A stretch of 64,000 nt of DNA from Schizosaccharomyces osmophilus (GCF_027921745.1 NC_079238.1:2790001-2854000); one strand, 5' to 3'; shown: positions 4,847 to 37,715, counted from the stretch's first letter. Numbers and translations are program-made. The notes: generated by a model from the sequence alone, not told the origin.

Positions 4847-6884
4847 ATGATGTTTTATAAAACTATTTTACATACTTCAAGAAGAAGGTTTAGCACCAAT
4901 TTGGTGACAAATAAAGGACATGTCGTGGTAATTGGAGGAGGCCACGCTGGAGTTGAAGCTGCTGCTGCCTCTGCAAGGCTAGGAGCGCCTACAATTCTTT
5001 TGACAAGGTCAGGCAATGATATTGGGCAAATGAGTTGTAATCCTGCTTTTGGGGGAATTGGAAAGGGCACGTTGATGCGTGAAATTGATGCTCTTGGAGG
5101 TGTTGTTAGTGCTGTTTGTGATGATTCTGCTATTCAATTTCACGTGCTAAACCGATCGAAAGGAGCAGCGGTATGGAGCCCGAGGGCTCAAATGGATCGT
5201 TCAATCTTTAAGTCAAATATGCAGAAGCGAATGAGTAATTATCGACCAAATCTCCACATTCTAGAAGGTAGTGCTGTTGATATTAGTACGAAGGCAGACG
5301 CTTCTGGTAACCTATCTTGTTCTTCCGTCAAACTCGCTGATGGTACAGAAATCGAAGCGAATGGCGTTGTTATTACAACTGGAACGTTCTTAGGTGCTAA
5401 CATTAACGTTGGAAGTAAGCAAACACCAGCGGGCAGGCTTGGTGAAGCTCCTTCCTTTCCTCTCAGTGATTGTCTACGGCGTCTAGGTTTTCAGATGGGA
5501 CGCCTGAAAACAGGAACACCACCGCGTATACATCCTAAAACAGTTGACGTTGAGAATCTCTCAGAGCAACTAGGTGATGGAGTACCTGAAGCGTTTAGTT
5601 TTCGTAACTTGAATGACAACTTTCTTCCAAAATTACCACAACGCTCGTGTTATAAAACTCATACAACAGAGCAAACGCACATGCGCATCCGCGATAATCT
5701 GTCATTAGCCCCTCATATGCTTGCACATGATATCCATTCCCCCCGTTATTGTCCTTCTTTAGAAGCTAAGGTAACTCGCTTTCCTGAAAAATCAAGACAT
5801 ATAGTGTGGTTAGAGCCAGAAGGTTTAAGCCCTGATTCTTTTTGGTATCCAAATGGGCTAAGTAACTCAATGCCTGAAGAAGTGCAAAAAATGATAATTA
5901 GAACTGTACCAGGGCTTGAAAACGCTGAACTAGTTCGCCCAGCGTATGGTGTGATGTACGATTATGTTGATCCTCGTCAACTCCATCCTACACTTGAAAC
6001 AAAAAACATTCGTAAACTTTTCACAGCCGGCCAACTTAATGGTACTACTGGATACGAAGAGGCTGCCGCACAAGGTATCATAGCTGGCATAAATGCCGGT
6101 TTGGCCGCTTTAGGTAAAGGACCCATCACAATACCTAGAAATGCTGCATTACTTGGAGTAATGATTGATGACTTGATAACCAAAGGTGTCAAGGAACCAT
6201 ATCGAGTTTTTACGTCTCGAAGTGAATATCGACTTACTACGAGAGCTGACAATGCTGATTTAAGGCTGATGCCCCTGACGAAATCTCTTGAATTACTTGA
6301 TGACAGCAGTCAATGGGAAAACTTTTCGACTACTAAAAGTTCAATGGACGCCGTAATTAGTGATTTAAAAAACAAAATTCTGAGTTCTCAACAATGGGCC
6401 AAACTTGGACTTTCGGTGCCCCATGATGGAAAGTATCGAAGTGCCTGGCAATTATTATCATTCACGAATTTAAATGCAGTGGATATTGCGCTCACGCTTC
6501 CTTCAGCAAAAGAACTTCCTCGAAGGATACTTGAAAGAGTAATTATTGAAGGAAGATATGCATTTTACATTGGTCGGCAAGCATCACAAAATAAGTTGCT
6601 TTACTATCGAGATGAATCCACAGTTATTCCTCCAAGTTTTGATTATGAAAAGTAAGTTTTTCATTCTTTGTTACACTAACAAGTAAACCAGGTTGCAATC
6701 TGTTTCCGCAGAAGAATTAATGTTATTAAAAACAATTCGACCCGCTACCATCGGACAGTTGAAGCGAATTCCAGGTATCAAACCAAGTACAATCATTTAT
6801 ATGCTTCGTCACGCCACTCACAATCCTAAAAAAGAAACCTGGATGCAAGAAGTTTTTAAGCCTATGTATGACTTTCATTCTTAA
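4847..6884 (+). CDS. MTO1: Mitochondrial GidA/MnmG-family tRNA U34 modification enzyme
   Basis: VVIGGGHAGVEAA, MSCNPAFGGIGKG, RYCPSLE, AGQLNGTTGYEEAAAQG; intron 6652-6691; basic presequence. Symbol follows budding-yeast/human usage. Confidence 0.93.
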
Positions 6885-7034
6885 TCATACGTTTACGTTC
6901 TCTTTGTAAGCTGCCTAACTATACGTACCCGATCAAATTAGAACGGATAACTAAAATAAAACACAAAATTTTATTACCTTAAATATTTTTTCCTTGACTA
7001 AAGACCCGTTCTTTTCTAATTCATATAAAGAGTT

Positions 7035-9976
7035 TTAAATAACATAACCGTACGACTGTAAAACGCTTTGGCCATCACCAGGTAAGTGCATGCTTATAAT
7101 TTGGGACACTCGATTGGCATAACGTTTATTAGCAGCGTTCATCTCTGTAGCAGCATAGTGTTTAAGATCAGCTATTTGAGCAAATGGGTCCACACGTTTG
7201 CCACCACTAGTTGCCAGTCTTGAAAAGGAAGCTTGGAACATCACCGAGTCAGCGTCAATCTCGTCTACCATAAGATCTTCGTCAGCCTCGGTTTGAGTTT
7301 GTTCGATTGGAAGTTCGAATAACTTCAATAGCGATGATAGGATGGGAATGAATAGGCGTTCATATGGAGAGTTATTTGATACTAAAAGATCACTAGTGAG
7401 CAAGCGCACCATACCTATTGCGGTGATCTTCCTATCCAAAGGAAGAGATAGTTTTTGGGTTTGAGGTAAAATAATTGAAGACATAACTTGTCCAAACACT
7501 CCGGTTTGTACGGAATCCACGCCATGAATTAAATTATCTGGTCCGCATGAACCTGTAGTAGAAGCCGCCAAAAAGAAGAAGAACACGGTACAACGTAATG
7601 AAAACCGTTCAGTACGTGAATTTTTAAGACGGCTCAATAATAAGAAAAAGATATGATTTATGTAAGGAGCAAGGATGTTAGCATCGAAAACGGAGAACAC
7701 CCGATCTAGTAAATCAAAACCAAAATGATCATTTATTTTAGAGGAAATCAACTTCCTATAAATACCCAAAACAGGTTCCACAAAGTTATTTGAAATAAAT
7801 ATTTGAGGACCACGAGTAATCATTGCTTGCAAAAGCCTTACTAAAGCAGGAATGTTTCCCTTGGAATCCCAAAGGGCCGGAGATAAGCAAGGTTGTATCA
7901 TATTCACCACAAAATCAGGCAGAGGTTCAGACCCACTTGCTTCAATCAATTGGGACAAAAGTTGTAAAACATAAGGAACAAATTCAGTCACATCCATTAT
8001 CAAGACATTCTGGAAAACAGGAAGCAAGGCAGATTCTAATTGCGAAACGGTTTGCGGTCCCGTTTTTGATAAACTTCGAATAAATGCACCAAGTGCCTCA
8101 AACAAGTAGTGATTGAATTTTGGGTTAGAAGGGTTTTTGCATACTTCAGTTGTTATTTTAGTTAAATGAGTTAAAGCAAGTTCAGCAAATGGCACAATGC
8201 GCTCTTGAGACATGATAATAATCCGCATAATAGCCTTCATCAAGTAATCGTTTTCAGCAAGCTTTTGTGGAGTAACACCACTCTCGATAATGAAAAATAG
8301 CTGGCCTAATACCGGATGGATAATGGGTTCTATAAGAAGGCTAGTAAAAATGTGTACGTGATCATGGCGGAGCGTAAGCAATAGATCAATGGCAATTGAA
8401 GCATAAGTGTAAACAACAAAATTCGGCAATTTCAAGAAATCGGCGATAATAGGTAAGATGTCGACAAGTTGCTGAGATTGCAATTGGTTTCTAAAAGTAA
8501 ATATAAACTTGATATCTTCAGCCAGTACCATAGGATGAACGCTCCCAACAGGTTGAATTAGATCAGGTCTGATGTTGCTTTCAAAAAAACTAACAACATC
8601 AACCATGAGATTTGTTGAAGTAACTCCCAACCTCGACGATTGACCTTTAATTGCAATAGCCGCAAACAATTGTAAAGCAGCATACTTTTTGTTCCAATCT
8701 GATGTAGGATTTAAAGAGGATTGTTGAAGACTAGCATTTATATGGGTAGTAATAACTGTGGTAATTAGTTGATCGAAGTGATCTAATAATCCCCGAACCA
8801 GTACGATGGCAGACCGAGAACGAGAATCACTATTGGATCCTTCTAAATCACGACGAACATATTCAAGGGGATCATCCTCAAACAGCTCTTCGTCAGATTC
8901 ACGCAGGCAGATATTTGGGAGAATGACGAGTTCGATAAATTGTTGGAGGATAGGTTCTTGTCGGAAGAACTCTGCATGTCTACGAATTCGAATAACTGAA
9001 GTTAAGAAAGCCATAGCTTTTCCTACCAACACATCATATTTCTCCTCTTGGGTAAGATTTGTAAGTAGCGTCCAAGTCATATTTACAAAGTCGGTTAAAT
9101 TGGTAAACACTTCTTCGTATCGAAGGGTATAAAGTTCAGCGATTTCACAAATACTGGCCTTTACCTTAATTAAGACATTGTTATCATCATCTTCCAAAGC
9201 AGGATTAGAGTAGATAAAGTAATTGAGAAAAGTAGTCATAAACTCTGTTATATGATCTTCAAAAAACTCCGGAATATCCTGACAATTTAAATCATAAAAA
9301 AGTTTGCATTGTAGTAAAATAACCTGAAACAAGGTGTTTAGAGAAGCGACATTCTGGGGTCCACTTGCCAAGAGAGCATTGGTTTGCTTGAAGAGAGCAA
9401 GAAAGGGTTCACAAAAACGATCCAACACATATTTGATCTCCAAAAACAACGCATCACTTCGAAACAGAGGACGCCAACGCTTAAATATGGCGTGAGCCGT
9501 AGAAAGCACAGAAATATTTACATTCAAGTCTACTGGAGAGAGTCGGGATATCAAATCAGGCAAAAGAGAATCCCAGCGATCAGGGAAATCGAAATTGGCA
9601 ATATAGCCTACAACTTCTCCTAATTGTACCTGAATATTGGCAGGGCTCTTAATCATGAGATTGATAATTTCGCGCTTGACGAGTTCGGCCACTTCGTCGT
9701 TAATGCGAACAGTAGCATCCTCTTCAGCATCCCAGTATCTTTTAATGTAATTCTTAAAATACAAAGAAGCAGCAAGTTTGATGCTAGGGTCGGAGTTTTC
9801 ATCTGCAACAATGCTTAATAACTGGAGAGCAAAGCTTCCATCTTGAACTTCCCATGATTTTAAAGCTTCCTCGGCTGTATTCAACGTCAGTTTATTTCCA
9901 TTATATTTCAATACTTACCAGACCTGGAGGTGGCAGGATTTAGAGTACCTGCAAGAAGAGCTGGAATCCCGTCCAT
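7035..9976 (-). CDS. kap109: Exportin Cse1/CAS (karyopherin Kap109)
   Basis: Importin-beta N domain (LAASLYFKNYIKRYW), FYDLNCQDIPEFFEDH, NPSNPKFNHYLFE; short exon 1 (ATG 9976) plus intron 9875-9918. Confidence 0.93.
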
Positions 9977-11100
9977 GATATACGTGAAGGGGTTGTTGTG
10001 GTTGAAGGAAGGATGAAGAACATGGGTACTATATAAGGAAAATCAATACTAAATTGCATTTCATGGAATAGGAGCTGTTTTATTTATTTCTTTGGTATTT
10101 TTGAATTAAATCTGGATGAATAAAAGTTACGAGTCGAATATACGAAGGGAAAAGGATCGGTTTCTCTCGTCATGGGCTTTCTTCACTTTATGAGATTAGC
10201 TTATATATGTCTACTTTTATTAAAGAAAACTGTTTACACGTATAGAAGAGTAAGAGAATCCCGCGCAAGCATCAACATGCATAGGAGAAAGAGAAAATAG
10301 ATATTGGTTCATCCATAGGAAATTCGATTTCCCATGACTTTATTACAATAAATATAAATCCTTTATACTTCAGATTTTCCTAGCTTGAAACAAATGTCAA
10401 AAAAGTTTCGTTTGTTTACACGAAAAGCAGACGTATAGTCATCTTTCAGCATATTGTAAAAAAAATAAAAATAAACATACATAAAAAAATAAACTGATAC
10501 AGAAAAATGGCTGCAATAGTAGTTAATGCCCAGGAGGTTTGAAAGCATTTTTCTATTCTTTTGTTTACAAATAAGAAACTATCGATAATGTGAACAAAAT
10601 TCCAGTTTCATGTGTTTCAGCTTAGCTACGTATTGTTCGAAACTGTTTCTACGTAAATTAATTCTAGATAGTCATGTAGCACCGGTTTTCTTCTTGGTTT
10701 ATTTGACAAATGGAAGTACTTAACGTTAAAGAGTATTTCTTTTTACCAAAAAGGACTCTCCCAGTATAAAAAATATAGTGTTTTTATAATATGAATTGAA
10801 TTACAAAATCTTCTTGATTTATCTGACTTTTCGTTCTTTTTATTTTATTACTATTTTTTCTAATTTTCTGTAAACAACAACAAAGAATCATTTTATTTAC
10901 ATTTTTTTTTATGAAGTTCGTAAAGGGGTATAAGCAGCTACGAAGCCTTGAATAAAATATAATAGTGTGACTTAGCGCCACTCTTTATTTACTTACAATC
11001 CAACTTACAATAGTTAACTACATATTTTTGGGCAGTGTATTATTACAAAAAGTCGCCTTCTATTGTCATTGTAAAAGGACGTTGGAAACTATGAACTATA

Positions 11101-13776
11101 ATGTTTGACGGAGGATATGCTCAAAAAATGAACTTTAGCGGTTCTGACTCGGGAACAACAAGAACACCGGACTTGTATGGACAAGGCAATAGCGGCCAGT
11201 TTCCCTCCTATCCCTCTAATAATTACCAGCTCTCATCATCGTCTAGACCGCAAATGGAAGGAAATCCAGGATATTCTGAGATGATGTTGCAAACGCGCCC
11301 GCCAGCGACAACACAGGGATTTCCATACGGCTCTTCAGGTACAACTGAAGGGGTACCTTCGGTACCATCCATACACATGGGAGAAACTAACCAGTTTACT
11401 TCTGCTCCTATGGCTTCTGCTGGTATGAAGCATGCGTCGCCGTCTATGCCACCTATGGCTTCATCCATTCAGCAGCAACAACATCAACAAATGTTACAAA
11501 GGCAACTTTATCTAAAAAGTCAAATGGAATCAGCAAATACTACGTTTGAACCCTCTTCTCAAAACAACCCTGAGTACCCCCCAAACACATTTCCTAACCA
11601 AAGTATGGGTGCCTCATCCTCCAGATCTCCTTCGATGGCGCCTGGTGTGCCTAACAATTCCAGTCCTCCAAACAGAAATAGCAACTCAAATCCTTCAGAT
11701 GTTGCTGAAAATTACAACAAATTTATGGTCAGTTTATTAAGTTTTATGGCGAAGCGTGGAACTCCGTTGAAGAATTATCCATCAATTGATGGATCTCCTA
11801 TAAATCTTATGATGCTTTATGCTCTCGTTATGCGCACAGGTGGCTCTAGGCGAGTAACAAGCTTAAAATTATGGCCCAAAGTTGCTGCTTCTCTTGGAAT
11901 CACTAATCCAAAAACAGTTCCCCTCTTGTATCAGCAATATAACAATTGCCTTCTTCCCTATGAAGAAGCATGGGCCCGTGCCCACCAACAAAAGCTTCGG
12001 TTAGAAAATCAAAATCAAACTCAAAATGAAAACCAAACTTCTTATTCGGAAGACCCAAGAATACTCACCTCTAGACAAGCATCCGTGCCGAAGATGGCAT
12101 CCCACGTACAAATACCAAATCCTAAAAGTGAAACACCGTCTCTGAATGTACCTTCATACATGACTGCTAACTATAAACCGTCACCCTCTCCTACTGCTGT
12201 ACCCCAACGAAGCGGCTCAATCCCACTTAACCCTTCTGGTAATGAAAAAAGCAAACCTTTTGCCTCCAATGTTTCGACACCCTTACCATCCGTATCCAAC
12301 CGACCTCCTCCAGCCGAACTTAGCGTTGAATCTCGTATTTACAATCCCATAAAAATAGACTTGGCGGGAACAACTGCTGGATTTCCTTTGCATCTTTCTA
12401 GCGCTCATCGCATTGATGAGTCCTTAATGCACTTGAAAATGCCATCTATTTCAAACTTAGGCTGCATAAACATTCATGCGCTATCCATGAGTCTCTTATC
12501 TACACTTTCTGGTGAAATGACTTACTCCCTCAATGTTTTACTTCTTTTGACGAATGATAGACAAGAAGTGGTGCATCTAGCGAAATGCGAGGAAGTAATT
12601 GATGCGTTGGTGGAAGTTGGATGGAACTGCTTGGATATATTGACTGAAAGACTTGCATCGGAATCAAATCAAAACCTTCACAACGAAAGGCCATCTTATA
12701 GGCATCTATTGCTAGAATGCATACAAGAGAATAACCTTCAAAAGATTCGGCCAGACAGCGGAGCTGAAGCTTGCCCTACTGATGAAAGAAAAAGTCGTGA
12801 ATTGACAGAGCAACACTTGCTTGCAGTATGTATAATATTTCGTAACATGTCTCTTGTTGACGAAACTATAATGAACCGTTGTCACGGATCTGAGTTTTTC
12901 AGCTTTTTAATGCGATTAATTCGGCTATTGAATCGTGGTGAGTCTTATTTGCTACCGTCCAAGCGTGCCATGTTAGATCTTCATAAAGACGTTTTGCTAT
13001 TACTTTCACAAGTGTCGCATAATATAGTGTTACCAAACATGGAATCTGCTTTGCAAATATTACATTTTATTTTAGCGTTTTCTCCTATAACGAAGAGATA
13101 TATCAAGCGAAATGGTTTGGAAACGGAACACTCCCAAAAATTTCCGTTAGACGTTCCTAATTATACCCCTTTCACACACCCCTATGTGGGACCCTCTATA
13201 GCTGTGTACGCAAAGTTGTTAGCTCGGGACACTACCAACAAAATCTTTTTTCAGACGGTCTTTGACCGAAATCCTGCTCTTCTAGACCTGACATTTCTCT
13301 TCCTTGCCTCCGTTATCCCAAAGTTCAATAGACAGTGTTTAAAGCTTTGCGAAAAGCGTCTACCATTGTTACAGCATGCCTTTTTATGTTTAGAAAACAC
13401 TGTATCGTTTATACGAGAACCATCCCAGGCGGTGTTTTGGTGTAACATTGGCGATGGTTTTTTTGCTTCTCTCATTCGTTTGTTAATTCTATTATCCGGT
13501 CATCCATCTCTTAATCCCGTTTTTCCTCCCGATGTTCCTGCCCGAACGAGCACGAATCCCTTCCGCTATATCATTCAAAATGGGATATTATGTGCAAAGA
13601 AGCTCTACCATTTAGCATGCTCGATCAATGCCCCAATTACCTCTTTCCCAAAAGGCGAAACTATTCTAGCGATCCTTCTTGCTCCTACCACCGACCGAAC
13701 GTTTTTGAAAGACCTATCAACTATATTGGATAAAGACCTTGAGGAACAACTATCTTTTAATAATAACTTTGAATAA
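11101..13776 (+). CDS. sol1: SWI/SNF subunit Sol1 (ARID domain, Swi1-like)
   Basis: ARID (FMAKRGTPL..INLMMLYALVMRTGGSRRV..WPKVA..LLPYE), low-complexity N-terminus, ARM-like C-terminus. Confidence 0.85.
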   Translation: MFDGGYAQKMNFSGSDSGTTRTPDLYGQGNSGQFPSYPSNNYQLSSSSRPQMEGNPGYSEMMLQTRPPATTQGFPYGSSGTTEGVPSVPSIHMGETNQFTSAPMASAGMKHASPSMPPMASSIQQQQHQQMLQRQLYLKSQMESANTTFEPSSQNNPEYPPNTFPNQSMGASSSRSPSMAPGVPNNSSPPNRNSNSNPSDVAENYNKFMVSLLSFMAKRGTPLKNYPSIDGSPINLMMLYALVMRTGGSRRVTSLKLWPKVAASLGITNPKTVPLLYQQYNNCLLPYEEAWARAHQQKLRLENQNQTQNENQTSYSEDPRILTSRQASVPKMASHVQIPNPKSETPSLNVPSYMTANYKPSPSPTAVPQRSGSIPLNPSGNEKSKPFASNVSTPLPSVSNRPPPAELSVESRIYNPIKIDLAGTTAGFPLHLSSAHRIDESLMHLKMPSISNLGCINIHALSMSLLSTLSGEMTYSLNVLLLLTNDRQEVVHLAKCEEVIDALVEVGWNCLDILTERLASESNQNLHNERPSYRHLLLECIQENNLQKIRPDSGAEACPTDERKSRELTEQHLLAVCIIFRNMSLVDETIMNRCHGSEFFSFLMRLIRLLNRGESYLLPSKRAMLDLHKDVLLLLSQVSHNIVLPNMESALQILHFILAFSPITKRYIKRNGLETEHSQKFPLDVPNYTPFTHPYVGPSIAVYAKLLARDTTNKIFFQTVFDRNPALLDLTFLFLASVIPKFNRQCLKLCEKRLPLLQHAFLCLENTVSFIREPSQAVFWCNIGDGFFASLIRLLILLSGHPSLNPVFPPDVPARTSTNPFRYIIQNGILCAKKLYHLACSINAPITSFPKGETILAILLAPTTDRTFLKDLSTILDKDLEEQLSFNNNFE

Positions 13777-14047
13777 TTAGTTGCTTCCTATTCATGTTGA
13801 TCTATTTTTGTTAATATTATTTCCTTCTCTTCATTCGTTGCATTCGCTTCATTTTATCTCTAACTAGTACTTTCATGCTCCTTTATTTCCCCATAAATGA
13901 AAATAGTGTTGTGTATACTTCTAAACACACAAATACACAAGCCCTTCTGGTTTAAATAATTATGCTTACGTTTTACTACTGGCATACAACAACAACTTAG
14001 TTTATAAAAAAAAGAAAAATTTATTATAAAGAAATCGACAAACAACT

Positions 14048-14154
14048 AACATCAGACATCCAAAGGAAGGACTATGGCCGTCATTTGCGACAAGATTGGG
14101 TTCGATGTCGCTCCGTGAAAACTGCGAATGTTTATTGGAAATTTCATCACCTGT
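14048..14154 (-). ncRNA. snoU14: U14 box C/D snoRNA
   Basis: Minus strand: box C GTGATGA (14150-14144), domain A CATTCGCAGTTT (antisense to 18S AAACUGCGAAUG), Y-domain hairpin GCGACA..CGAACC..TGTCGC, domain B CCTTCCTTTGGATGT next to box D CTGA (14055-14052). Confidence 0.95.
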
Positions 14155-14464
14155 CAGTCTTTGTCGATACTTTTTTCCATCACCCACAACAACTAAGCAC
14201 ATCTAAGACAAACTAAAGCTAACTGACAAAACTTTCATTGTCAAAAACTGGAAAAGAAAAGAACAGAATCCAAAACTCGCTCGTATAGGAGCAGCTACCA
14301 CGATTTATTCGATCATACACGCTTCTATATCAATACAGGAATACCGATACCTCAAACACTTTACGAGTTTGAAAAGTTTAAAACTTTCATGATCCCATCG
14401 CAAAAGCACACCTGAAAAAAGTTAGTAATGGGTTGGCAGTAAAGATCACCAAATGAAAAACGAG

Positions 14465-14590
14465 AGAATCAGACACCTAAAATACTGGCAAGTATTACCT
14501 CTTTCGGGAAAAAAAAATTGAAAGAGGCGTGTTGTATCGTCATAGTCGATAGGACGGGTAAAGAAGACGCATATTAATATCATCAGGCTT
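14465..14590 (-). ncRNA. Intronic box C/D snoRNA, snR190-like (probable snR107 orthologue)
   Basis: Box C TGATGA (14585-14580), guide GTCTTCTTTACCCG (14568-14555), C' ATGACGA (14543-14537), box D CTGA (14472-14469), flanking stem ACGAGA/TCTCGT; lies within a GTAAGT..TACTAAC..CAG intron (14622-14412). Confidence 0.85.
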
Positions 14591-15096
14591 TCTCGTTCTT
14601 CAATAGGATTGGAATAACTTACCTCTACAGACAAGTTTACCGAGAATCCAAAATTTTAGGTTTTCCAAAAATCACAAAAATTTAATGTTTCAGCTTCACA
14701 GCGAAGTTACATCTTAATCAACAGATCGCAATGTTTTATCACTCACAATACGCAGAGCCTCCAAAGTTATCGACACATCCGTCTACGAATTACCGTTTTC
14801 ACGATACACGATTACGCGTTTCCACGATTAAGACACGTCCACCTACTCCAGCTACGGCTTAGGAATTCCAACCAGCAGCTACTCATACGCATGATCCAGC
14901 ATTTTCAAGTGCCCAACTGGCAACAACACACTCCCGTCCAAAAAAGGTCCTTACACTCATCAGTCCTCCTTACAAGAACCTTCTCGTAATGAAAACCAAA
15001 TTCAATGCATCCACAGGACTGTGTTTAGCACAGGACTGTATAATTACCAGTGAAACACTTGAAGCTGCTTAATGAAAAAAGAGGTCCTTTGCTGTC

Positions 15097-15124
15097 CTTA
15101 TATAGATTAAAAAACCCTAACCCT
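15097..15124 (-). promoter_or_regulatory. TATA box (TATATAAG) and AACCCTAACCCT element upstream of the snoRNA host
   Basis: cttatata at 15097-15104 reads TATATAAG on the minus strand; AACCCTAACCCT at 15113-15124 resembles the AACCCT box/Homol-E/Teb1-Tbf1 motifs. Confidence 0.55.
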
Positions 15125-15712
15125 GAAAGTTCTGGAAGGAAAAACTGTGGTGAAAACAGTCCTTTGTAGCATCCATTACGTCATTGGGAATTTATCCAGC
15201 ATGGAAGAGTAGAGCAATGCACCACGCGGAATCGTAAAAGCATGTAACAGACTACAAAAGATAGCTCAGTATAGACTGTAAGGCAATTAAAGCCTTTCCG
15301 TATATGGAAATACAGAGATGCAAAAAGGCGACAATGAGAGCGGCCCTCCAACAAACTTCATACTTGTAACAAAGTATTGAACCAACAAATAGCTTTGTCG
15401 TATTCGGTTACAGAATTGTCGTTGATACAACCAACTATCCGGCTAATAAAAAAAGAGCCAACAACGAAATAAAATTTAAAACAAATATGCATACTCTATA
15501 GTACAACACGAATGTCTGTCAATTTCCCCATTGTTTACCAAAATGAAATAGCGAGTTGCGACAATGCACGGTAGACATTGCCAAAAAAATATCTTCCATC
15601 GCGCTATTCCAGCACTCCCAGCATTTTTTACATCGGCGGGACCTCAACTTCACGCTTTGCATAGAGAGCTAGAGCAATTCACTGCTTTAGCAGACAGTTA
15701 TCGAATCTCTTT

Positions 15713-16939
15713 ATGAAAAGCATGGGCACCAACTATGCATCTATGATGTTTAACAGCGGCTCCAATATTCTTGGCTATGGCGTTCTTAGACTTTTACAGT
15801 ACAATGAACAATTATCCTGCGGGTGGGAAAACACCATGAAAGAAGACATCGGATACTGGAGGAGATTTGTGCACAATTTCTTTACTGAAAAGGGAACGTT
15901 TCGATTTAATTTTGAACCCAACGCACAAAGGACTCGCGAGTCGAAGGAGTTTGAATTGTCGTATGCAGCTTTGCCGAGATTCTTCTATTTAAATTACATG
16001 GGAAACATGAGGCGAATGTCGATTGTTTTGGGTGATACGAAAGAATTCGCAATTCCTAATAATGGATATTTTGTCGAGTCCTCAAACGCAAGCCTTGTGT
16101 ATCAGTTTGCTAATGGTATACAAGTAATCATTTATGGTTGTTTGCGAGCGCACTTCCATCGTGCACCTCTTTTGAAATTGGACTCACTTGAATTCTCCGC
16201 TACCAACCATTCCGAGTATCTTCTTCGTGAACTTGTAGAAAATGCTTCTCTCGCCCAGCAGTATCAACAAGAGCGCCGGCCAGAACAGGAAAACACATCG
16301 ATTTTCCCTTCGCAAGGCAACGAACAAGCTCCGTTTTATCCTCCATATAATTTCGGTGCCAGTGCGCAACTCCCCTCAACGCCGGTGAACGAGTACGGGA
16401 TTGAACCACGAATCATGCGCTTTTTGGAAATTTCTGAAACTATTTCTGGGATGCGAGATTTAATAGCCTTTACTTTGGCTCAACGTTCAGGTCCGGCAAG
16501 TGCCCTCCAAAAGTTCGCTACAGCTTTACAGCAACAACAGCAGATGCAAAAATCTAGTGCTGCAAAGGTAGCTTTTCCGAGTAATCCCTCTGTAAATAAT
16601 CAAGTTCCTAATAACGCTGAAGCTCCATTTCCCATGGCCCCTTCCGCAGCTGCAACGGGAGGGCCTCCCGAATACCGCGTCCCTAATTACCCATCCAATT
16701 ATAATTATCACCAGTCCCAACGCGCCATGAGCACTAATTTTGATTCATCTCAATTTGCCAACCATTACCCACATCCAAACCCTCAATCGCCTGCTCCATT
16801 AATGAATCCTGCCTACACACAACCTTCTCAGAAAAGGTCCGCTACAATGTCTCCGCTGGGGGAACGCGAAAAGCAGGATGTTGATCCCTCGTTTTACCCC
16901 AATGGATCCTTGGGACCTCAGAAGCGAGCTAAAGCTTAG
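15713..16939 (+). CDS. adn1: LIM-domain-binding/Mfg1-like transcription cofactor Adn1
   Basis: LIM_bind-like domain (YWRRFVHNFFTE..LPRFF..VNEYGIEPRIMRFLEISE), Q/N/P-rich tail. Confidence 0.8.
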   Translation: MKSMGTNYASMMFNSGSNILGYGVLRLLQYNEQLSCGWENTMKEDIGYWRRFVHNFFTEKGTFRFNFEPNAQRTRESKEFELSYAALPRFFYLNYMGNMRRMSIVLGDTKEFAIPNNGYFVESSNASLVYQFANGIQVIIYGCLRAHFHRAPLLKLDSLEFSATNHSEYLLRELVENASLAQQYQQERRPEQENTSIFPSQGNEQAPFYPPYNFGASAQLPSTPVNEYGIEPRIMRFLEISETISGMRDLIAFTLAQRSGPASALQKFATALQQQQQMQKSSAAKVAFPSNPSVNNQVPNNAEAPFPMAPSAAATGGPPEYRVPNYPSNYNYHQSQRAMSTNFDSSQFANHYPHPNPQSPAPLMNPAYTQPSQKRSATMSPLGEREKQDVDPSFYPNGSLGPQKRAKA

Positions 16940-17661
16940 TTGTTTGTCAAAACAGCTTGTCCTTAATATAATGGTTATCCTTGTCACCCGTTTTTGTTAC
17001 TACTTAAATATGTTTCCTTGCCCGTTGCCTTAATTTATTCTCTCATATCTGCTTAAAGGAGGTTTTTCTGTTGATTTCATGTTTACTTATTATGGTTTCC
17101 ATTTGACGTTATTTACTGTCTCCCTACCCTTCGTTTACTCTCTTTGTTTCCTCAAAAGTCGTTCTTCTTATTTTATTTTATTTTATTTTTGTCATATTCA
17201 GTCATTACTTAGAGACAAGTATTTTCCTATCCTATTCCATATCACATTTCAGTATATTCACTTACAACATATGGAATCGTTCTCCATTTCGAGGAACATT
17301 ATTAAGTTGCAATAATTAAAAAATCTATTCCCATTTATCTTATTATTTTATTCGTTCGTCAACTGTGTTGGCAATACAATAGTTTCTATTAATATAGTCT
17401 AGCTTACAAAAGGGAAAAAGAATTATTTAGAACACGTATAAATAGAAAAAGATGATCTTTATGTCTTTATCGTGGCAAACGGACCTTATTGCCCTCTACT
17501 GTGTAAACGCGTAAGCTATGATCTTCATCTTCAGTAAACGTAGTAACCTATCTTTCACCATACACTGACTCACAGTGTAACTAGTGCTTACACTCTTAAT
17601 ATTTCTATTTTTATTTATTATCCTTATAAGAAAAAAATTATAAGCGTAAATCCTTCATTCA

Positions 17662-19596
17662 ATGCAATCGTTCGGCGATTTGGAAGTATTGGACCAACTA
17701 GATGATGCTGACTTTTTAAACTCAAGTACCAGGATTCGTCGCTTCAAAGGGTCGAAAAAGAATGCTCATACTTTCCCTCGTAGTAAGGGCACTCGTATTT
17801 CACAATGGCCTCGCATGAGGTTTGTTCGTGCAGTGGATATCTTTAATCCTACTGAGGAAGTAAATAGAATGATTGAGGAGGAAAAAAGCAAACGAAACGC
17901 TACTTCTGACTTTAGTGGGCTTGAGTACAAGAGTAAGGCTTCTGAAGAGGAGCATCCTTACGTACAAAAAACTCCTGGCGTTCATCAAGACGTTGTTTTG
18001 TTCAAGCCTATACGCAATAACATTATCTCACGTGAAGACAAGGAACCTTCACATGCTCAAAAGAATATTCATGAAGATGCTACTGTGTACAAGCCCGTAA
18101 CTGTAACTGAAAAACAATCGGAAGAGAAGCATACCCCTCGTATAGCTTTGGACTCTCCTCGGTCCCACAAACCACATAAAGCTAAAGGTTTACAGAAAGA
18201 GAACATGGATGGAAAAAACAAAAAAGCACATAAAAATTCCGATAAACGTTTTGGTAGAGAAAAACCGTATATTCTTTCAGATACTGAGGACAATCTACCA
18301 GACGAGGACAGTACTGATACAGAATTAAAATTCAGCATGAATAAGTTTGCCGACTTGTCTATGCTTTCTGAAACTGATGAAGATGATGAATCCATGGAAG
18401 GAGATGAAGACATAGAGAGTACAAATGCGGAATCTACAGATGAAAATGGATCATCCTCTCACGAGAATTCGGATTTGCTTAATGACCAGCATGACCAGGA
18501 TTATGAATACGATGATGAAGAACTAGCAAACGTCTTGGCTGAAACCGAAAACTTAGAAGATGAAGAAGTAAATGCCTTGCTTGCTAGTGTCTTCAATGAC
18601 AGTGACGATTCAGAAATCGAAGCTTACCTAAGTGTTGGAGACACTGGCGCAAATGATTTTACACTTTATGATTACGATAGCGAAGAGGAGCCATACCAGA
18701 AAGCACCTCCGAAAGCATTATTAAAACCTTCCAAAAAAGACAACAAGAAAAAAGAAAAATCTAAGAAAGTATCTAAAAAAGAAAGGAAAGCCCAAGGGAA
18801 ACTTGAAAGAAAAGCTGGAAAGTCAATAACAAATCGACTCGCTAGTGCTTATGATGTCGATGAGGATATTGCTCAGGAGTTGGAAATGTACTCTGATCTT
18901 CAAGAACAATGGATAAAAGATCATCAAAAGAAAGCGAAGAAGCGTAATGAACGTGAAGAAAAGCGTGCACAGGGGCTTTTAGGGAAAAAATCTAGTAAGA
19001 AACTGGCTAAAAAAGCAGCAGCTTCTGACAAAGGTTCGGACCCTGATAGTCCTACTCTATCGAAAGCGGACCACGATTTTATCATGCATGCATACAAGCG
19101 GATGCAACAGTTATGTCTTTCAGGAGTGGATGAGGTTTCTCTTCCTGCATGCCGGAAATATGTGCGCCGTTTAGTTCATGAAATAGCTAACCGTCTGAAT
19201 CTCCGTTCTCAAAGCTATGGTTCTGGCAAGAAACGGTACACGGTTCTTTCGAAGACGCCCCGATTTAATTCCTCAGATATTAATAGCACATCGTTAACGA
19301 GGATTCTACATCGTGTGCAACTGTCAGTTGAAAAGCGATCAGGAATTTCCGGTAAACCAGGTAGAAAGCCCAACATTATGCTTGCTTCGAAGCGTACAGT
19401 TACCAGTGCTACAAAACTATACGAAGGCCAAGTGGTTGGTGGAGATGCTCCTGAAATCACTCGTGCTAATCCAGGTCGTCGTATGTTAGAGCGACTGGGC
19501 TGGTATGCTGGTAAAGGATTAGGACATCCAGAAAATGAAGGCTCTCATGAAAGTTTGCGTGCTATCGTGAAGACCAGTCGCAGTGGTCTAGGTTAA
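17662..19596 (+). CDS. sqs2: R3H and G-patch domain protein (Sqs1-like)
   Basis: Acidic and K-rich middle, R3H (RRLVHEIANRLNLRSQSYGSGKKR), C-terminal G-patch (NPGRRMLERLGWYAGKGLG..RSGLG). Confidence 0.8.
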   Translation: MQSFGDLEVLDQLDDADFLNSSTRIRRFKGSKKNAHTFPRSKGTRISQWPRMRFVRAVDIFNPTEEVNRMIEEEKSKRNATSDFSGLEYKSKASEEEHPYVQKTPGVHQDVVLFKPIRNNIISREDKEPSHAQKNIHEDATVYKPVTVTEKQSEEKHTPRIALDSPRSHKPHKAKGLQKENMDGKNKKAHKNSDKRFGREKPYILSDTEDNLPDEDSTDTELKFSMNKFADLSMLSETDEDDESMEGDEDIESTNAESTDENGSSSHENSDLLNDQHDQDYEYDDEELANVLAETENLEDEEVNALLASVFNDSDDSEIEAYLSVGDTGANDFTLYDYDSEEEPYQKAPPKALLKPSKKDNKKKEKSKKVSKKERKAQGKLERKAGKSITNRLASAYDVDEDIAQELEMYSDLQEQWIKDHQKKAKKRNEREEKRAQGLLGKKSSKKLAKKAAASDKGSDPDSPTLSKADHDFIMHAYKRMQQLCLSGVDEVSLPACRKYVRRLVHEIANRLNLRSQSYGSGKKRYTVLSKTPRFNSSDINSTSLTRILHRVQLSVEKRSGISGKPGRKPNIMLASKRTVTSATKLYEGQVVGGDAPEITRANPGRRMLERLGWYAGKGLGHPENEGSHESLRAIVKTSRSGLG

Positions 19597-20473
19597 AATC
19601 CATTCATTTTGAATTTGATGATGACACCTTTGTTTTTTTATGACGAACATTTCTGACATGAATTATTTAATTTTCTTTTTGATATACTTTTATAGAAGCC
19701 TATGCTATCTAAACCTGTTTCTTCCGGGTCTTTTTGTACATATTACGCATTTGTTATAGAGATAACAATGAATAGTTGGGTTTGAAGCGTCTTTAAAATA
19801 TTTGTTGACTCCTGTATTTGTAAGTTTTTCATCCGGTCTTTACCATTTATGAATCTATTCCTAAATCTTTAAAGAAAAAGAAATAAAGTTGCTCATTGCA
19901 TTACACTATTTGAAAATACGTTGGTTCGTACGCATCATTAAGTTTTGTTACCGATGAATCAAAATGTAAGATCCGTGCTTTCCACGAAGTCCGTGTGTTT
20001 TCCCTTAGCACAGCACAAAAAGGTAGAAGGTGTTTAATCCTGACCTGTTGTTTCTACTCGAAACGCGTATATTTTTTTATTTCAAGGGGTTTCTATTTCA
20101 GTGAAGAGTAATTATCTGTGCCTTTTTTATCTTTTGCAATTGGCCATTTAACCCATTTATTGATCAGTCAAGGCTTGACTGCATCTTCTTCGCAATCTTT
20201 CGTTCTTTTCGTATTGTCGTTCTTTTTTTTTATGCTTCTAGATATATAGAATCTATTCTTTTCTAGGTTTCTTACACTAATCAACGCATAATTTATATTT
20301 GGATACCCGTTCATGCTTGGATAATAACGAGCGTAAATAGATCTTCGTTCTTTTTCTGAATATTCTCATTCTTTCCTTATTCACTTTCTTTTTATAACGG
20401 TTTTAGCGTTTTACAGGGACGTTATCTTTCCAAGAAATAAGTCGATTGTCTAGTATTTTGCGGCTGTGGTACT

Positions 20474-21412
20474 ATGAAGTCGTTTTATTACCGATCCCTC
20501 GCTTTGCGATTCTTGCAAATCTTTGTACTTTTTAATATAGGTAATCGCCAAGTGTATGCAGATTTGAATACGCAGTTTGGATGTTACCAGGTCGATGAAA
20601 GTTTATCCGTCAAAGGTAATTACCAATTCCTCACTCCTCAGTACTGCTATGATCATCTATGTAATGACGATCCTAATGTTGCTTTTGTTGCCGTACGCGA
20701 AAAAAATTGCTACTGCGGTAATACACTTACAGCCCAAAAGGTTGATTCTAGCAATTGTAACAAAGTATGCCCTGGTTGGGACCAGTTCAAATGTGGTGGT
20801 GACCTCTATTGGTCGGTTTACTTGACCGGTAGCGGTATTTTGCATACGTCGTCTTCTCAGAGTTCCTCTTCTACTTCTTCTACTCATTCATCCTCAAAGA
20901 CTTCCTCTACGCCGTCTTCCACGACGAGCTCAACGTCAAGTTCTGCACCATCTTCCAAACCTACTTCTTCCTCCCATTCCCCATCTTCTAGCCAGTCATC
21001 ATCTAGAATCACATCGCCCAGCTCATCATCTTCTCATATGCCAACAACTTTTTCTTCGTCCTATGTGAGATCAGTGACTCCCAGTCCCACAAGCTCATCT
21101 TCATCTTCGACGGGTTCACCAAATGGTTCTCAAGGCTCAAAGATGAATAACTCATTGAACACTGGTGCAATTGTTGGTATTGTGATTGGTTGTGTTGCTT
21201 TTGCAGTGGTTATCGCTTTATGTATTTGCCTATACTTTTGGTATAGGAAGTTTAAGGCAAGGATGAATGCTAAGGATGATATAACTTTTCCCTCCTACAA
21301 GAGTGAACTGGACTCGCGTCTTGATCCTGGCATGCTGAAAAATCGCAACTCCGCCGAATCGTTGGCCGATAGTCAAGATTACTCGAGAAGAATTTTAAGG
21401 GTCATGAATTAA
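20474..21412 (+). CDS. wsc1: Cell-wall stress sensor Wsc1
   Basis: Signal peptide, Cys-rich WSC domain (GCY..CYCG..CNKVCPG..CGG), S/T stalk, single TM, tail ending DYSRRILRVMN. Confidence 0.9.
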   Translation: MKSFYYRSLALRFLQIFVLFNIGNRQVYADLNTQFGCYQVDESLSVKGNYQFLTPQYCYDHLCNDDPNVAFVAVREKNCYCGNTLTAQKVDSSNCNKVCPGWDQFKCGGDLYWSVYLTGSGILHTSSSQSSSSTSSTHSSSKTSSTPSSTTSSTSSSAPSSKPTSSSHSPSSSQSSSRITSPSSSSSHMPTTFSSSYVRSVTPSPTSSSSSSTGSPNGSQGSKMNNSLNTGAIVGIVIGCVAFAVVIALCICLYFWYRKFKARMNAKDDITFPSYKSELDSRLDPGMLKNRNSAESLADSQDYSRRILRVMN

Positions 21413-22869
21413 AAGAAGAAAATATAATATATGAATCTTTTTACGTCAGCACACTTGGAGACAGCTTTCTATATTTACTCAAATGTTTTATCTACATATT
21501 TTCTTCCATATAAAGATAAAAAATGCGTGCCTTATTTCTCGCTTCGATATTTATTTATTAATTTACTTCGTTGGTTTATACTTTCTTTTTTATAAGGATT
21601 TCATTGTCTGCTTGAAATCTTTTTATTCTTTTTCCTTTTACTTAATTTCATATTTTCTTAGTTCTGATCGACCTTTACATTTTCTTCAAGTCTAGTGCCG
21701 GATTATGAGGATTCTTTTCAAACGCATCCGAGTCTCTAACATTTGTAAACATATGCAAGGATGCGATAATTACTGCTGAACATCATTGATGCTTTTGTAT
21801 TTTGCTTGTATCGTTCAAATGGTGCTTGTTTTTAATAACGGTTGAGCGGAGAAACAATTTTTTACGATTCCCCTTAGATGTCTTTTCCTCTTTATATTAC
21901 TAGATTTTTTTTTATAATTCAATGGAGGATACACAACTTTTGGAACCAATGACTTGTTGTGAACCTTTGTGTTGTTTACGAACGCTGAAGGAAGTCCTTT
22001 TATGGAAAGACTTTTGATTAGCCGTCATTATGGTCGCTGTTGGAAAAAGGACTATGCATGTGTTTTGTTTTTCAGAGTATGGTACTCAAAACTATTTCAA
22101 TCTCTTTTTTTAGACGGCAGCCAACCTACCTCATTGAACTCTATTCCTTTATTCTTTTGTTCTTCCTCTGGCGATATCCTAGAACCCAGTCACTCTTTCA
22201 TTTGCTTTATAATAATTTACCTGCCTGCTTTCTTGGTTTAATTGAATTGACAAATTCCAATTCAGTGATACAAAGTAGTACACACCTTGTTAAACCCTTA
22301 CCGTTTTGAATTTTTATCTAATTTTTATAGGGCTGAAGTCTAAAAGAAAAGAAGAAATGTGGTTTATTAACCCTTCGTCTTGTCTCATGGAAGCTGTGCT
22401 ATTTGAAAAGTGGGATTCAGCACAAGTCAAAATCAACTGAAACATTTGTATTTTTTTTAAACCGATTATAAAAGAAAAACTGCTTTACTTGGGTCCACTG
22501 ACAGTATTTAATAGAAACTAGACCCTCCTTTTCTATCTTCCTAGCTCGTTTGCGAACTTTCTCTGAGCTAGATGCTATTCAAATGTACCCATATCCGAGC
22601 TCCTTGTGAGATTCCTTTATGAGCATACTCTTAAAAGATGTATCCTTTTATGCTTATAAGCCGTTCAACGTCACTTCAATTGCTGTAAAAGATGACGTCA
22701 TAGCCCACAAGAGATTATATATTTCCATCCCCTCTTCAATAACGGTGGTTATTATTATTCAGATTGACTCATACATTATTAATTCGTTGAGATATTACTA
22801 TACCACCTAAACAGTGAAAACCTGCTGCCTATAATACTGGATCTTACCAAGTGAAAATTCAAAGACAAT

Positions 22870-23091
22870 ATGTAAGTACGAGCACGAGACGATAAGTACT
22901 ATTCGAAGGTTTGCTCTTACTAACTTTTCCGTAGGGCTAGAACATTTCAAGAAAAGCAACAAGGCCGCAGAATGAGAATGAGTACTGGCAACATTTTTTC
23001 GAGAGTCTGGAATTCAGTCGTCTTTGGTTTTGGTGCCGCTTTGGGTGCCACTGCTGCTAGTGCCATGCTTGGTGCTTGCTGTGGTGGATAA
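22870..23091 (+). CDS. 52-aa microprotein with intron-split start codon (MARTFQEKQQGRRMRMSTGNIFSRVWNSVVFGFGAALGATAASAMLGACCGG)
   Basis: AT(22870-71) | intron 22872-22934 GTAAGT..TACTAAC..TAG | G GCT AGA..; biased GGT/GCT/GCC codons; stop 23089-23091. Confidence 0.75.
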
Positions 23092-23836
23092 TTTCGAAGC
23101 CATACGAGACGAAAAATGCCAATTCAGATGATGCTTACATTTGACTGCGCTGGGATGCAAACTACCGAAAAGATGTCTCGAGATGATGATGATTCAAGAC
23201 ATCTGTAATAACGTGTGTTTGATGCGATTACGTTTATTTTATATCTTTTTGCTACTGGAACCCTTTCGATTTTATGATTTTTTCATTCCTGTTTGTTACA
23301 TTCTTGTCTTTATTTTTTCCCCATAATTAATTAAAAAATATCGCTAGTTCAGTCTTTTAATACTAATACACAATGAGCAACGCTTCCAATCGGAAGTTTG
23401 AGATTGAATGGTAGTCGAAGGAGGGTAAAGAGGTTGAGTGAATTTTTTAAATATTGGTATGTAGGAAGTTGTCTTTAGAAAGGCTCAATGGACAGAGGTT
23501 GGTTGAGAATAGTAGTAATAATCATTGACAACGGGAAGCTAAAAGTCATTTATTTAACGTCGAAAGATCATCTGTAATGATTTTCTCTTAGTCCAAATTT
23601 AATCACTTTCTATTATCATTACCGCTTAAAAGATTACAAAAATTATGATTACCTGGTTTGGTGTCATTTGGATTTTGGAATGGTGTCTTCTTTTTCGATT
23701 TAGATGAACCTGACCAGTGCCACCTATTCAAAAACAGAACAAGCGAAAGAGACTTTGCAAGTCTGATTAAATTGGCTAGTTTTTTTTTAAAAAAAAAACC
23801 AAGTTTAATTGTTTGAAAATAGAATAATCGTCAAAA

Positions 23837-26101
23837 ATGCGAGGTTTCGCCGCTTTTGCACCAAAAACGTGGATCCAGTGGATAGCCCTTTTGGCTATCC
23901 TTTTCCAGGTCGCTACTGCCTCCGTAGACCTGACAGATGAAAATTATAATGAGGCTGTGAATGGAAAATGGTTTATCAAGTTTTATTCACCAACTTGTCC
24001 TGCCTGCAAACGCATCGCTCCCATGTGGGAAGGTATGGCAAAGAAGTCGGAAGAGAAGGCCAATCAAGCCAATATCTCAATTGGCGAAGTGAATTGTAAA
24101 AAATATAGCAATCTTTGTCGCGACTTGGAAATTAAGGCTTTTCCCACTCTTCGATTCTTTGTAAACGGTGAGAACAAACAAGAAATACCGTACAGCGGTT
24201 TAATCACCGAGGCTTCTCTTTTAGACTTTGTTGATGATCGTATTGTCGACGCCGAAAAGGAAATTGAGGCCGAAAATACAGAGACACCGAAGGAAGCTTC
24301 TGATGCCGTTGCCCCTTCCGCACCTACCCAGACATTTTCTACAAGTTCTTTATCACTGGTAACTGCTTCTGGTACCTCAACAAAATCTATTACCGATTTT
24401 ACTGATTTGCAAATGGCACAATTTTCCGCCAAAACTTCTTCCGGTAGCCCTGCTTCTGCCTCTTTGACCCCATCTTCCTCTGCTATTAAATCAGGTACTG
24501 GTACATCAAAAGACGACCATTCATTGGCCTCCGCTTCCTCTGTTATTACTACTGTTCCTGCTACAAACAGTGCTGACAAAGCAACCGCTACTTCGCTATC
24601 TGCATCTTTACAGTCATCTACCTCTACAACACCTGAAGCTACCTATGCTATTCAAACTGCTCCAAATGTTCTTCCCGAAGGAGGAGATTCCTCGGGACCC
24701 TCGAATAAAGATTCTGAAAAAACCGACCAGCCGGTTCTCAATCCTGCTGGACGCTCCAAACCCCTAGTTACCCAAGAAGACATCGAGGGTGCCTTAACAA
24801 GTGATGTTGGCTGGTTCGTTCGCTTTTATTCTTCTGATTGCACAAATTGTGCAGATGTTACTACAGCTTGGGATTCAATGGCTGGAAGAATGAAGAATAA
24901 GCTCAATGTTGGCCATATCGACTGCAGCAAGCAAAAACCCAGCTGTAGCAAATATAAGGTTCAGCATTATCCTTCTTTCTTTTTTTTCAAGGAAAATGAA
25001 TACGTGGAATATTTTGGTCTCCCTAAAGTCGGTGATCTTACTAGTTTCGCTGAAGAAGCCGCCAACTTCGAGATCCGTGAAGTCGAATTTTTTGATACCA
25101 CGGAATCTGAGAAACATGGAGATGTCTTCTTCCTATATTTTTATGATGATAAGAGTGCTGATAGCCTTGCTACAATTCGTAAAACTGCTATTCAACTGCT
25201 TGGCCATGCCCGTCTTTACCTTACAAAGTCTCAACAACTTGTAAAGAAATACAATGTCAATAACTTTCCAAAGCTAATTGTCGTGAAAGATGCCACTCCT
25301 AGTTATTATCCTACTAGTGTAGCATCTGATATTATCGATTACAGAAGAATTTTGAATTGGATGAAGAACAATTGGCTTCCAGTCCTTCCAGAACTCCAAA
25401 CATTTAATTCTGATGAAATTGCTAATACTGATACTGTCGTTTTATTTTCCTTGAATCCCGATTCACCTGATTTTTATGAAACTAAAGCCACCGCTCGAAA
25501 CATTGCCTCTGAATGGTTAAACGAGGAGTCTCGTGAATATCAGATGGCTTGGAAGGAAGAAACTGATAAAAAGAATGCTCATATGAACAAAGCTGAGGAA
25601 AAGAATGATGCCGAAGCGTTAGAGGCCGCCCGGAATATGAATGTCAAGCATAAACCCGCCCCTAAACGATTTGCCTGGGTAAACGGCAATTATTGGGCAA
25701 AATGGCTTACTAACTTTAATCTCGATATCAAAAACTCGGGCCCAAGGGTAGTTTTATACGACGCTGGTAAGAATCTTTATTGGGACACAACTGCCAAGGG
25801 TGAACCCATCACTGTTAATAAAGACGTCGTTACCAATTTTCTTAAGGATGTGGAAGCTAATCCCAACTCTTTGAAGCCTAAAAAGCCTAAAATGCTAAAG
25901 GAAAATGCTGGTCTAGAATACTTAGCTTCCTACGGATTGGATACACGTGCTTTATACTTAATTTGTGGTGTCGTTTTTCTCGGTATTGTTGTTTCATTAT
26001 TTGGTGCTAGAAGGATTAGAAGTCTTGAGCGCCGACACCGTTCTTCTCCCATTTTGCCCATCGCAACAAAGAACACGGGTAATACTGGGAAATTTGATTA
26101 A
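23837..26101 (+). CDS. ER membrane protein disulfide isomerase family protein (Eps1-like)
   Basis: Signal peptide, thioredoxin domains with CPAC and CTNC, S/T-rich linker, C-terminal TM, ends GKFD. Confidence 0.85.
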   Translation: MRGFAAFAPKTWIQWIALLAILFQVATASVDLTDENYNEAVNGKWFIKFYSPTCPACKRIAPMWEGMAKKSEEKANQANISIGEVNCKKYSNLCRDLEIKAFPTLRFFVNGENKQEIPYSGLITEASLLDFVDDRIVDAEKEIEAENTETPKEASDAVAPSAPTQTFSTSSLSLVTASGTSTKSITDFTDLQMAQFSAKTSSGSPASASLTPSSSAIKSGTGTSKDDHSLASASSVITTVPATNSADKATATSLSASLQSSTSTTPEATYAIQTAPNVLPEGGDSSGPSNKDSEKTDQPVLNPAGRSKPLVTQEDIEGALTSDVGWFVRFYSSDCTNCADVTTAWDSMAGRMKNKLNVGHIDCSKQKPSCSKYKVQHYPSFFFFKENEYVEYFGLPKVGDLTSFAEEAANFEIREVEFFDTTESEKHGDVFFLYFYDDKSADSLATIRKTAIQLLGHARLYLTKSQQLVKKYNVNNFPKLIVVKDATPSYYPTSVASDIIDYRRILNWMKNNWLPVLPELQTFNSDEIANTDTVVLFSLNPDSPDFYETKATARNIASEWLNEESREYQMAWKEETDKKNAHMNKAEEKNDAEALEAARNMNVKHKPAPKRFAWVNGNYWAKWLTNFNLDIKNSGPRVVLYDAGKNLYWDTTAKGEPITVNKDVVTNFLKDVEANPNSLKPKKPKMLKENAGLEYLASYGLDTRALYLICGVVFLGIVVSLFGARRIRSLERRHRSSPILPIATKNTGNTGKFD

Positions 26102-37641: not shown

Positions 37642-37715
37642 GGTCGCATGATGTAGTTGGTTATCATGTCGATCTAATAAGTCGAATGTCGCCAGTTCGA
37701 GCCTGGCTGTGACCA
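37642..37715 (+). tRNA. tRNA-Ile (anticodon AAT)
   Basis: Acceptor GGTCGCA/TGTGACC, D arm ATGTAGTTGGTTATCAT, anticodon stem TCGAT-CTAATAA-GTCGA, T arm GCCAGTTCGAGCCTGGC, followed by a T-run Pol III terminator. Confidence 0.95.

Follow-up and report, generated by a model that had tools for sequence, protein, structure and literature searches.

A probable mamRNA/snR107/snoU14 host gene in a Schizosaccharomyces species other than S. pombe

A gap between two ORFs in the 64-kb stretch of DNA analysed in this work (hereafter the window) very probably contains the host gene for mamRNA, snR107 and snoU14, in a Schizosaccharomyces distinct from S. pombe. We read it as one minus-strand non-coding gene, bearing snR107 in a 211-nt intron and U14 in the last exon, whose transcript is likely processed as in S. 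pombe. The system is already known: it has been worked out in S. pombe (Andric 2021, PMC7859202; Leroy 2025, PMC11971394; Migeot 2025, PMC12508059), and its conservation in the genus has been published. A sequence-only reading of the window had guessed that the system was not wholly new, rightly so in view of this published conservation and of an existing Rfam model. Its description of the S. pombe locus, as the source of mamRNA, a scaffold for Mmi1 and Mei2 with snR107 in its intron, agrees with the published papers.

The locus adds one more fission-yeast genome to the published arrangement, in which splicing is followed by RNase III cleavage in the production of snoRNAs, and it matters little beyond annotation. 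Two small additions can be reported. The exact splice junction is found in RNA-like contigs of a relative that is not S. pombe, the published genus comparison resting on sequence as judged from its text and legends, and it is only in the snoRNAs, the splice sites and the hairpin that the sequence is conserved against this relative. If absent from the annotation, the gene merits inclusion as a snoRNA host gene with orthologues of snR107 and snoU14.

The intergenic gap and its two snoRNAs

The gap spans 1,936 nt (13777..15712). Its left neighbour (11101..13776, plus strand) is an ORF of 891 aa to which Pfam assigns an ARID domain, and its right neighbour (15713..16939, plus strand) is one of 408 aa with a Pfam LIM_bind domain. 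They are presumably sol1 and adn1, which would also flank snoU14 in S. pombe. The absence of a credible ORF claimed for the gap was confirmed, as its only ATG-initiated ORFs of at least 50 aa are one of 66 aa lying over U14 and one of 50 aa at the right edge. The longest ORF of the spliced host RNA is 57 aa. On the minus strand the gap holds, in this order, a TATA box, a non-coding exon, an intron with a box C/D snoRNA and a second exon ending in U14 (Table 1). Direct reading and Rfam also agree with the order given by the sequence-only reading, from the intron with its C/D RNA through two UNAAAC motifs to U14.

Table 1. Features of the host gene on the minus strand, from its putative promoter to U14, and one further gene of the window
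Feature	Position	Strand	Basis
Putative TATA box TATATAAG of the host gene	15097..15104	-	Sequence reading; presumed promoter role
Exon 1, non-coding host RNA (mamRNA-like)	14623..15041	-	Contigs in 4 of 4 runs
Hairpin 5' arm, exon 1 tail	14623..14649	-	Predicted pairing with 14288..14265 in the spliced fold
Intron, 211 nt	14412..14622	-	GTAAGT, TACTAAC, T-tract and CAG read; skipped by contigs in 3 of 4 runs
snR107-family box C/D snoRNA	14464..14591	-	Rfam RF04328; boxes and fold
Hairpin, exon 2 part: inner stems and 3' arm, putative Pac1 (RNase III) substrate	14265..14411	-	Predicted fold
Two UNAAAC hexamers (UUAAAC, UCAAAC)	14381..14376, 14372..14367	-	Apical part of predicted hairpin
Spacer, hairpin to U14	14156..14264	-	Contigs in 3 of 4 runs
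U14 box C/D snoRNA	14048..14155	-	Rfam RF00016; boxes
tRNA gene	37642-37715	+	Rfam RF00005, 56.6 bits

A scan of the whole window with Rfam at the gathering thresholds returned the snR107 match and one tRNA, and nothing else. The snR107 match (RF04328, 14591..14464) covers the full model (1-118) with 112.8 bits, the gathering threshold being 44, and an E-value of 1.3e-22. The complete C/D RNA, resembling snR190, that had been claimed within the intron is indeed there, RF04328 being the snR107 / snR190 / SNORD12 family. Its four boxes on the minus strand, C (UGAUGA, 14585..14580), D' (CCUA, 14553..14550), C' (UGACGA, 14542..14537) and D (CUGA, 14472..14469), are all identical in their letters to those given for S. 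pombe. The antisense elements ASE1, preceding D', and ASE2, preceding D, and the linker between D' and C' (the k-loop) show no mismatch to the upper-case RF04328 consensus, and in these elements and the boxes the RNA matches the family consensus as the S. pombe locus does. A difference lies in the internal stem-loop, which carries an 11-nt insertion relative to the Rfam consensus, with the loop enlarged to hold a run of nine U residues (U9); the distance from C box to D box is 117 nt, whereas S. pombe snR107 measures 107 nt. In S. pombe the corresponding 21-nt stem-loop of snR107 is reported as dispensable in the text of Leroy 2025 (PMC11971394). The U9 run (14500-14515, minus strand) is one U longer in the contig of the relative described below, owing to an insertion at 14508. 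S. pombe snR107 has also been detected independently by SnoBIRD.

The second snoRNA aligns with the full RF00016 (SNORD14) model (1-111) at 14155..14048, with 57.2 bits and an E-value of 2.5e-10. It is missing from the scan at gathering thresholds because this score is below the curated value of 64 bits. We nevertheless call it U14 because of its boxes C (14149..14144) and D (14055..14052, minus strand), its position and two long conserved blocks, starting at 14131 and 14071, which match the upper-case RF00016 consensus; the gathering score serves curation and does not describe the biology of the RNA. The two blocks are presumably domains A and B, complementary to the 18S rRNA. The U14 named in the sequence-only reading is thus upheld by the full-length alignment and the boxes, at a score under the gathering value. 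Further matches to the snR107 or U14 models were absent from the rest of the 64-kb window.

Transcription, splicing and the junction hairpin

The intron has canonical signals on the minus strand, with a GTAAGT 5' splice site from 14622, a TACTAAC branch site at 14427..14421 and a CAG after a T-tract that ends at 14412, which together give its length of 211 nt. Upstream of exon 1, TATATAAG at 15104..15097 is the sole TATA box noticed on direct reading of the gap. It is immediately preceded by AGGGTTAGGGTT (15113-15124, minus strand), which looks similar to the elements of HomolE / TTAGGG type that occur in the promoters of ribosomal-protein and snoRNA genes in fission yeast.

No public sequencing run that is recorded as RNA and contains the stretch was found. 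We used four small runs of one study (X1 to X4), available as assembled contigs, whose RNA status was guessed and which share 29-41% of the sampled words of the stretch. Their contigs, which show neither strand, true ends nor single molecules, were mapped on 13900..15400. Being 95-99% identical to the window, they come from a close relative, of another strain than that of the window. As a control, the cover by the same runs was determined over 18 kb (6000..24000), and three islands of at least 150 nt were found together with one 33-nt piece in X2: 7015-7280 (X1 only), 14009-15041 and 22862-23401 (both in all four runs), the last terminating at 23401 in a loose end of poly(A). Since few short islands and a poly(A) end are unlike genomic DNA, X1 to X4 were accepted as RNA.

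Within 13900..15400 the cover is limited to 14009..15041. No contig in any of the four runs extends past 15041, so that the 5' end of exon 1 lies at this position or further upstream; the most upstream contig end is 56 nt from the TATA box. In three of the four runs (X1, X3 and X4) contigs skip 211 bases that correspond exactly to 14622..14412, the junction foreseen by the sequence-only reading, while X2 has no contig spanning the splice site. The skipped segment ends in CT..AC on the plus strand when the cut is shifted by two bases, that is, GT..AG on the minus strand. A 737-nt contig of X1 joins 14956..14621 to 14409..14035 and thereby unites exon 1, exon 2 and U14, a contig of X2 (14405..14040) runs from exon 2 through U14, and a separate 155-nt contig of X1 over 14435..14588 represents the intronic snoRNA. 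An intronic snoRNA and an adjacent 3'-exonic snoRNA were in this way found on one precursor in the relative's contigs from this one study. Contig cover excludes 14410..14434 and 14589..14620, the intron in X2 to X4, and 14177..14263 in X3.

The contig ends around U14 cluster, those of X3 and X4 at 14176/14177 and those of X1, X2 and X4 at 14035-14040. One X4 contig (14038-14177), read in the RNA sense, consists of 14177..14038, four A residues and a repeat of 14177..14148. It could stem from a pre-U14 with a 5' extension and added A residues, but we treat it as a possible artefact of the assembly, next to the A6 run at 14176..14171.

These contigs bear on whether both snoRNAs are made mainly from promoters of their own, the long spliced RNA being a minor read-through without a role in processing. 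Some observations would suit such a case. X3 has a gap in its cover from 14177 to 14263, and 14176/14177 is where contigs of this run and of X4 stop; in S. pombe, mature U14 barely responds to mutation of the splice sites, and it has been suggested that it may also arise from a promoter of its own beyond the intron, on the downstream side (Leroy 2025, PMC11971394), while a Pac1-independent route to U14 has been described (Migeot 2025, PMC12508059). We nevertheless consider separate promoters unlikely. One snoRNA is enclosed in an intron of textbook form, whose exact removal is seen in three of the four runs, the X1 and X2 contigs are continuous from exon 2 through U14, only the one TATA box upstream of exon 1 was noticed on reading the gap, and the CAGE data of S. 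pombe presented in Migeot 2025 (PMC12508059) indicate one start site for the locus.

Compared with the relative, 13 changes fall in the 305 nt of the 5' part of exon 1 (14737..15041), the most divergent part of this exon, and 4 in the 108 nt of the spacer that precedes U14 (14156..14263), giving 17 changes in 413 nt. The covered portions of the hairpin, the splice-site flanks, snR107 and U14 have only 2 in 524 nt (Fisher P 5.9e-5), both in the snR107 contig, one of them being the additional U of the U-run. In 14264..14409, within the exon 2 part of the hairpin, and in U14, the relative's contigs are identical to the window. On the 3' side variation begins at 14263, two bases past 14265, where the pairing of the main stem ends, and this agrees with the constraint on the stem base reported for the genus, where the constrained parts are the splice sites, the snoRNAs and the stem base (Migeot 2025, PMC12508059, as given in the text).

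Folding of the region from -30 to +140 around the junction made in silico yielded -49.9 kcal/mol, compared with a mean of -36.5 (sd 3.9) for 300 dinucleotide shuffles (z -3.5), two of which were as low as the observed value. When the full spliced precursor (15041..14156 minus the intron) is folded, the structure of minimum energy has 14649..14623 paired with 14288..14265, which defines a predicted hairpin of approximately 174 nt, from the last 27 nt of exon 1 to position +147 of exon 2. The expected number of pairs between exon 1 and exon 2 in the ensemble is 19.6 in the spliced and 0.0 in the unspliced RNA. In the unspliced fold, 14649..14629 is paired instead with 14606..14624, the region of the 5' splice site (14606-14649, minus strand), and the same exon 1 bases are thus predicted to change partner upon splicing.

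This predicted hairpin, which depends on splicing, matches the published Pac1 signal of S. pombe, and by analogy Pac1 may cleave it here. According to the text of Migeot 2025 (PMC12508059), the S. pombe hairpin begins at -15 in exon 1, reaches +121 in exon 2 (-35 kcal/mol) and is cleaved by Pac1 with a 2-nt overhang. The spliced precursor becomes more stable when the arms are mutated, and decays again in a double mutant whose changes compensate each other. The purpose proposed there is to force splicing, hence the release of snR107, before cleavage. The sequence-only reading had proposed release by splicing rather than purely by endonuclease. This is correct for snR107, which the published work shows to be freed by splicing, and incomplete for U14, as in the published system the spliced junction creates an RNase III hairpin that helps to free this snoRNA; at the present locus such a hairpin is predicted.

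By extension from S. pombe, snR107 would be freed from the excised intron by splicing, debranching and exonuclease trimming. After splicing, the junction hairpin would recruit the Pac1 orthologue, the cut would part a mamRNA-like 5' product from a 5'-extended pre-U14, and the latter would be trimmed to U14. With a hairpin that forms only after splicing and is then cut by Pac1, the two snoRNAs would therefore mature in a fixed order. U14 levels in S. pombe are hardly altered when splicing or Pac1 fails (Leroy 2025, PMC11971394; Migeot 2025, PMC12508059), so that the hairpin route is not the sole one there, and a Pac1-independent route to U14 is probably present in this species too. As for the mature snR107, its ASE1 would guide the 2'-O-methylation of one guanosine of the 25S rRNA, equivalent to G2483 of S. 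pombe, and its second antisense element would aid 60S assembly; the window itself contains no rDNA.

The possible link to meiosis regulators

In S. pombe the control of Mei2 has been traced to snR107. The text of Leroy 2025 (PMC11971394) reports that deletion of exon 1 is without effect on Mei2, that the intron by itself rescues Mei2 control, that snR107 has no UNAAAC, and that its k-loop and ASE2 are the motifs required. The letters of the k-loop and ASE2 needed in S. pombe are conserved at the present locus in the Rfam alignment. By analogy, a link to the meiosis switch may apply to this species, in which snR107 might scaffold Mmi1 and Mei2 via the k-loop, the least secure step of the proposed mechanism.

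The wiring could also differ from that of S. pombe, with Mei2 and Mmi1 docking on canonical motifs, namely the exposed U9 loop for the former and the two hexamers at the hairpin apex for the latter, where Mmi1 would compete with RNase III cleavage. The RRM3 of Mei2 binds consecutive U residues in vitro, and the S. pombe k-loop is described as being without them (text of Leroy 2025, PMC11971394). We regard such a rewiring as very unlikely.

Also very unlikely, in our estimate, is a working DSR formed by the UNAAAC pair of exon 2, through which Mmi1 on the spliced host RNA, and not the snoRNA, would link the locus to meiosis. The two hexamers, which the sequence-only reading had listed as DSR motifs, are present 9 nt apart, at 14381 and 14372, inside a block that is unchanged in the relative, and for S. 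pombe mamRNA three UNAAAC sites have been counted and Mmi1 binding shown (Andric 2021, PMC7859202, in the text). What did not hold is an enrichment. Two more hexamers occur in exon 1, at 14738 and 14692 (minus strand), and none in snR107, U14 or the intron, so that the 1095-nt region contains 4 against approximately 1.75 expected from the window mean of 1.6 per kb per strand (Poisson P 0.10). On its two strands the window has 12 other UNAAAC pairs spaced by no more than 20 nt. The pair was rejected as an enriched DSR signal, these counts fitting chance. Moreover, the block is conserved as a whole hairpin, in the predicted fold of which the second hexamer (14372) is base-paired, and the ability of the S. 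pombe intron alone to restore Mei2 control, through an snR107 without UNAAAC, also argues against a role of the pair. The hexamers were left out of the functional parts because of this lack of enrichment and because the S. pombe activity maps to snR107.

That the locus merely holds chance matches or decayed copies from which no functional RNA is made, as a U14 score below the Rfam gathering value and the absence of the stretch from any run recorded as RNA might suggest, has a negligible probability in view of the E-values of 1.3e-22 and 2.5e-10 over full-length models, the integrity of every snR107 and U14 box, and the contigs of the RNA-like runs, which cover both snoRNAs and show them to be nearly identical in the relative, next to variable flanks.

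Relation to known systems and other features of the window

The host gene favoured here has its parts in the same order as the S. pombe locus described in the published text, with a single start region at the upstream end, then a non-coding exon 1, the only intron with snR107 inside it, and an exon 2 that has U14 at its end. Canonical splice signals and a predicted hairpin that requires the exon-exon junction are also shared. The orthology to the S. pombe mamRNA/snR107/snoU14 cassette proposed by the sequence-only reading is supported. The same organisation, down to a disjoint structure that spans the exon junction, has been reported as conserved in related Schizosaccharomyces, S. japonicus included (Migeot 2025, PMC12508059, in the text and legends). 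Differences from S. pombe concern lengths and exon 1. The intron is 211 nt long here and 227 nt in S. pombe (Leroy 2025, PMC11971394), and the predicted hairpin is longer, reaching from -27 to +147 (-49.9 kcal/mol for -30..+140) compared with -15 to +121 (-35 kcal/mol) in the published text. Exon 1 has diverged, two S. pombe exon 1 primers (Migeot 2025, Table EV2) giving no match with up to three mismatches. This primer result, the intron length and an snoRNA of more than 107 nt show that the species is not S. pombe.

In the snR190-U14 unit of Saccharomyces cerevisiae, U14 is immediately preceded on the same precursor by an snoRNA of the snR190/snR107 family, and RNase III contributes to their separation (Leroy 2025, PMC11971394), as is proposed here. 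The S. cerevisiae unit is described as having no intron and as relying on Rnt1 cleavage alone, whereas the upstream snoRNA is intronic at the present locus. According to the text of Leroy 2025 (PMC11971394), snR190 of S. cerevisiae guides no methylation. More distant relatives are the orthologous human snoRNAs SNORD12, SNORD12B and SNORD12C, described in introns of the non-coding host ZFAS1, which differs in carrying no U14 and in having no Mmi1/Mei2 link. Human SNHG25 resembles the present gene in another respect, with an intronic followed by an exonic snoRNA and a predicted hairpin over the last exon junction, for which DROSHA is the candidate RNase III in the published account.

Outside the gap, the tRNA of the Rfam scan lies on the plus strand (Table 1). 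The island at 22862-23401 (plus strand), covered by contigs of all four RNA-like runs up to its poly(A) loose end at 23401, contains no ORF of at least 60 aa and has no Rfam match in a search of 22500..23800. GTAAGT and TACTAAC signals are found near 22872-22935 and are skipped by no contig. A 39-codon ORF was noticed by eye, from an ATG at about 22973 to a TAA at about 23090, rich in G, A and small hydrophobic residues, and the island may represent a gene for a small protein or for a non-coding RNA.
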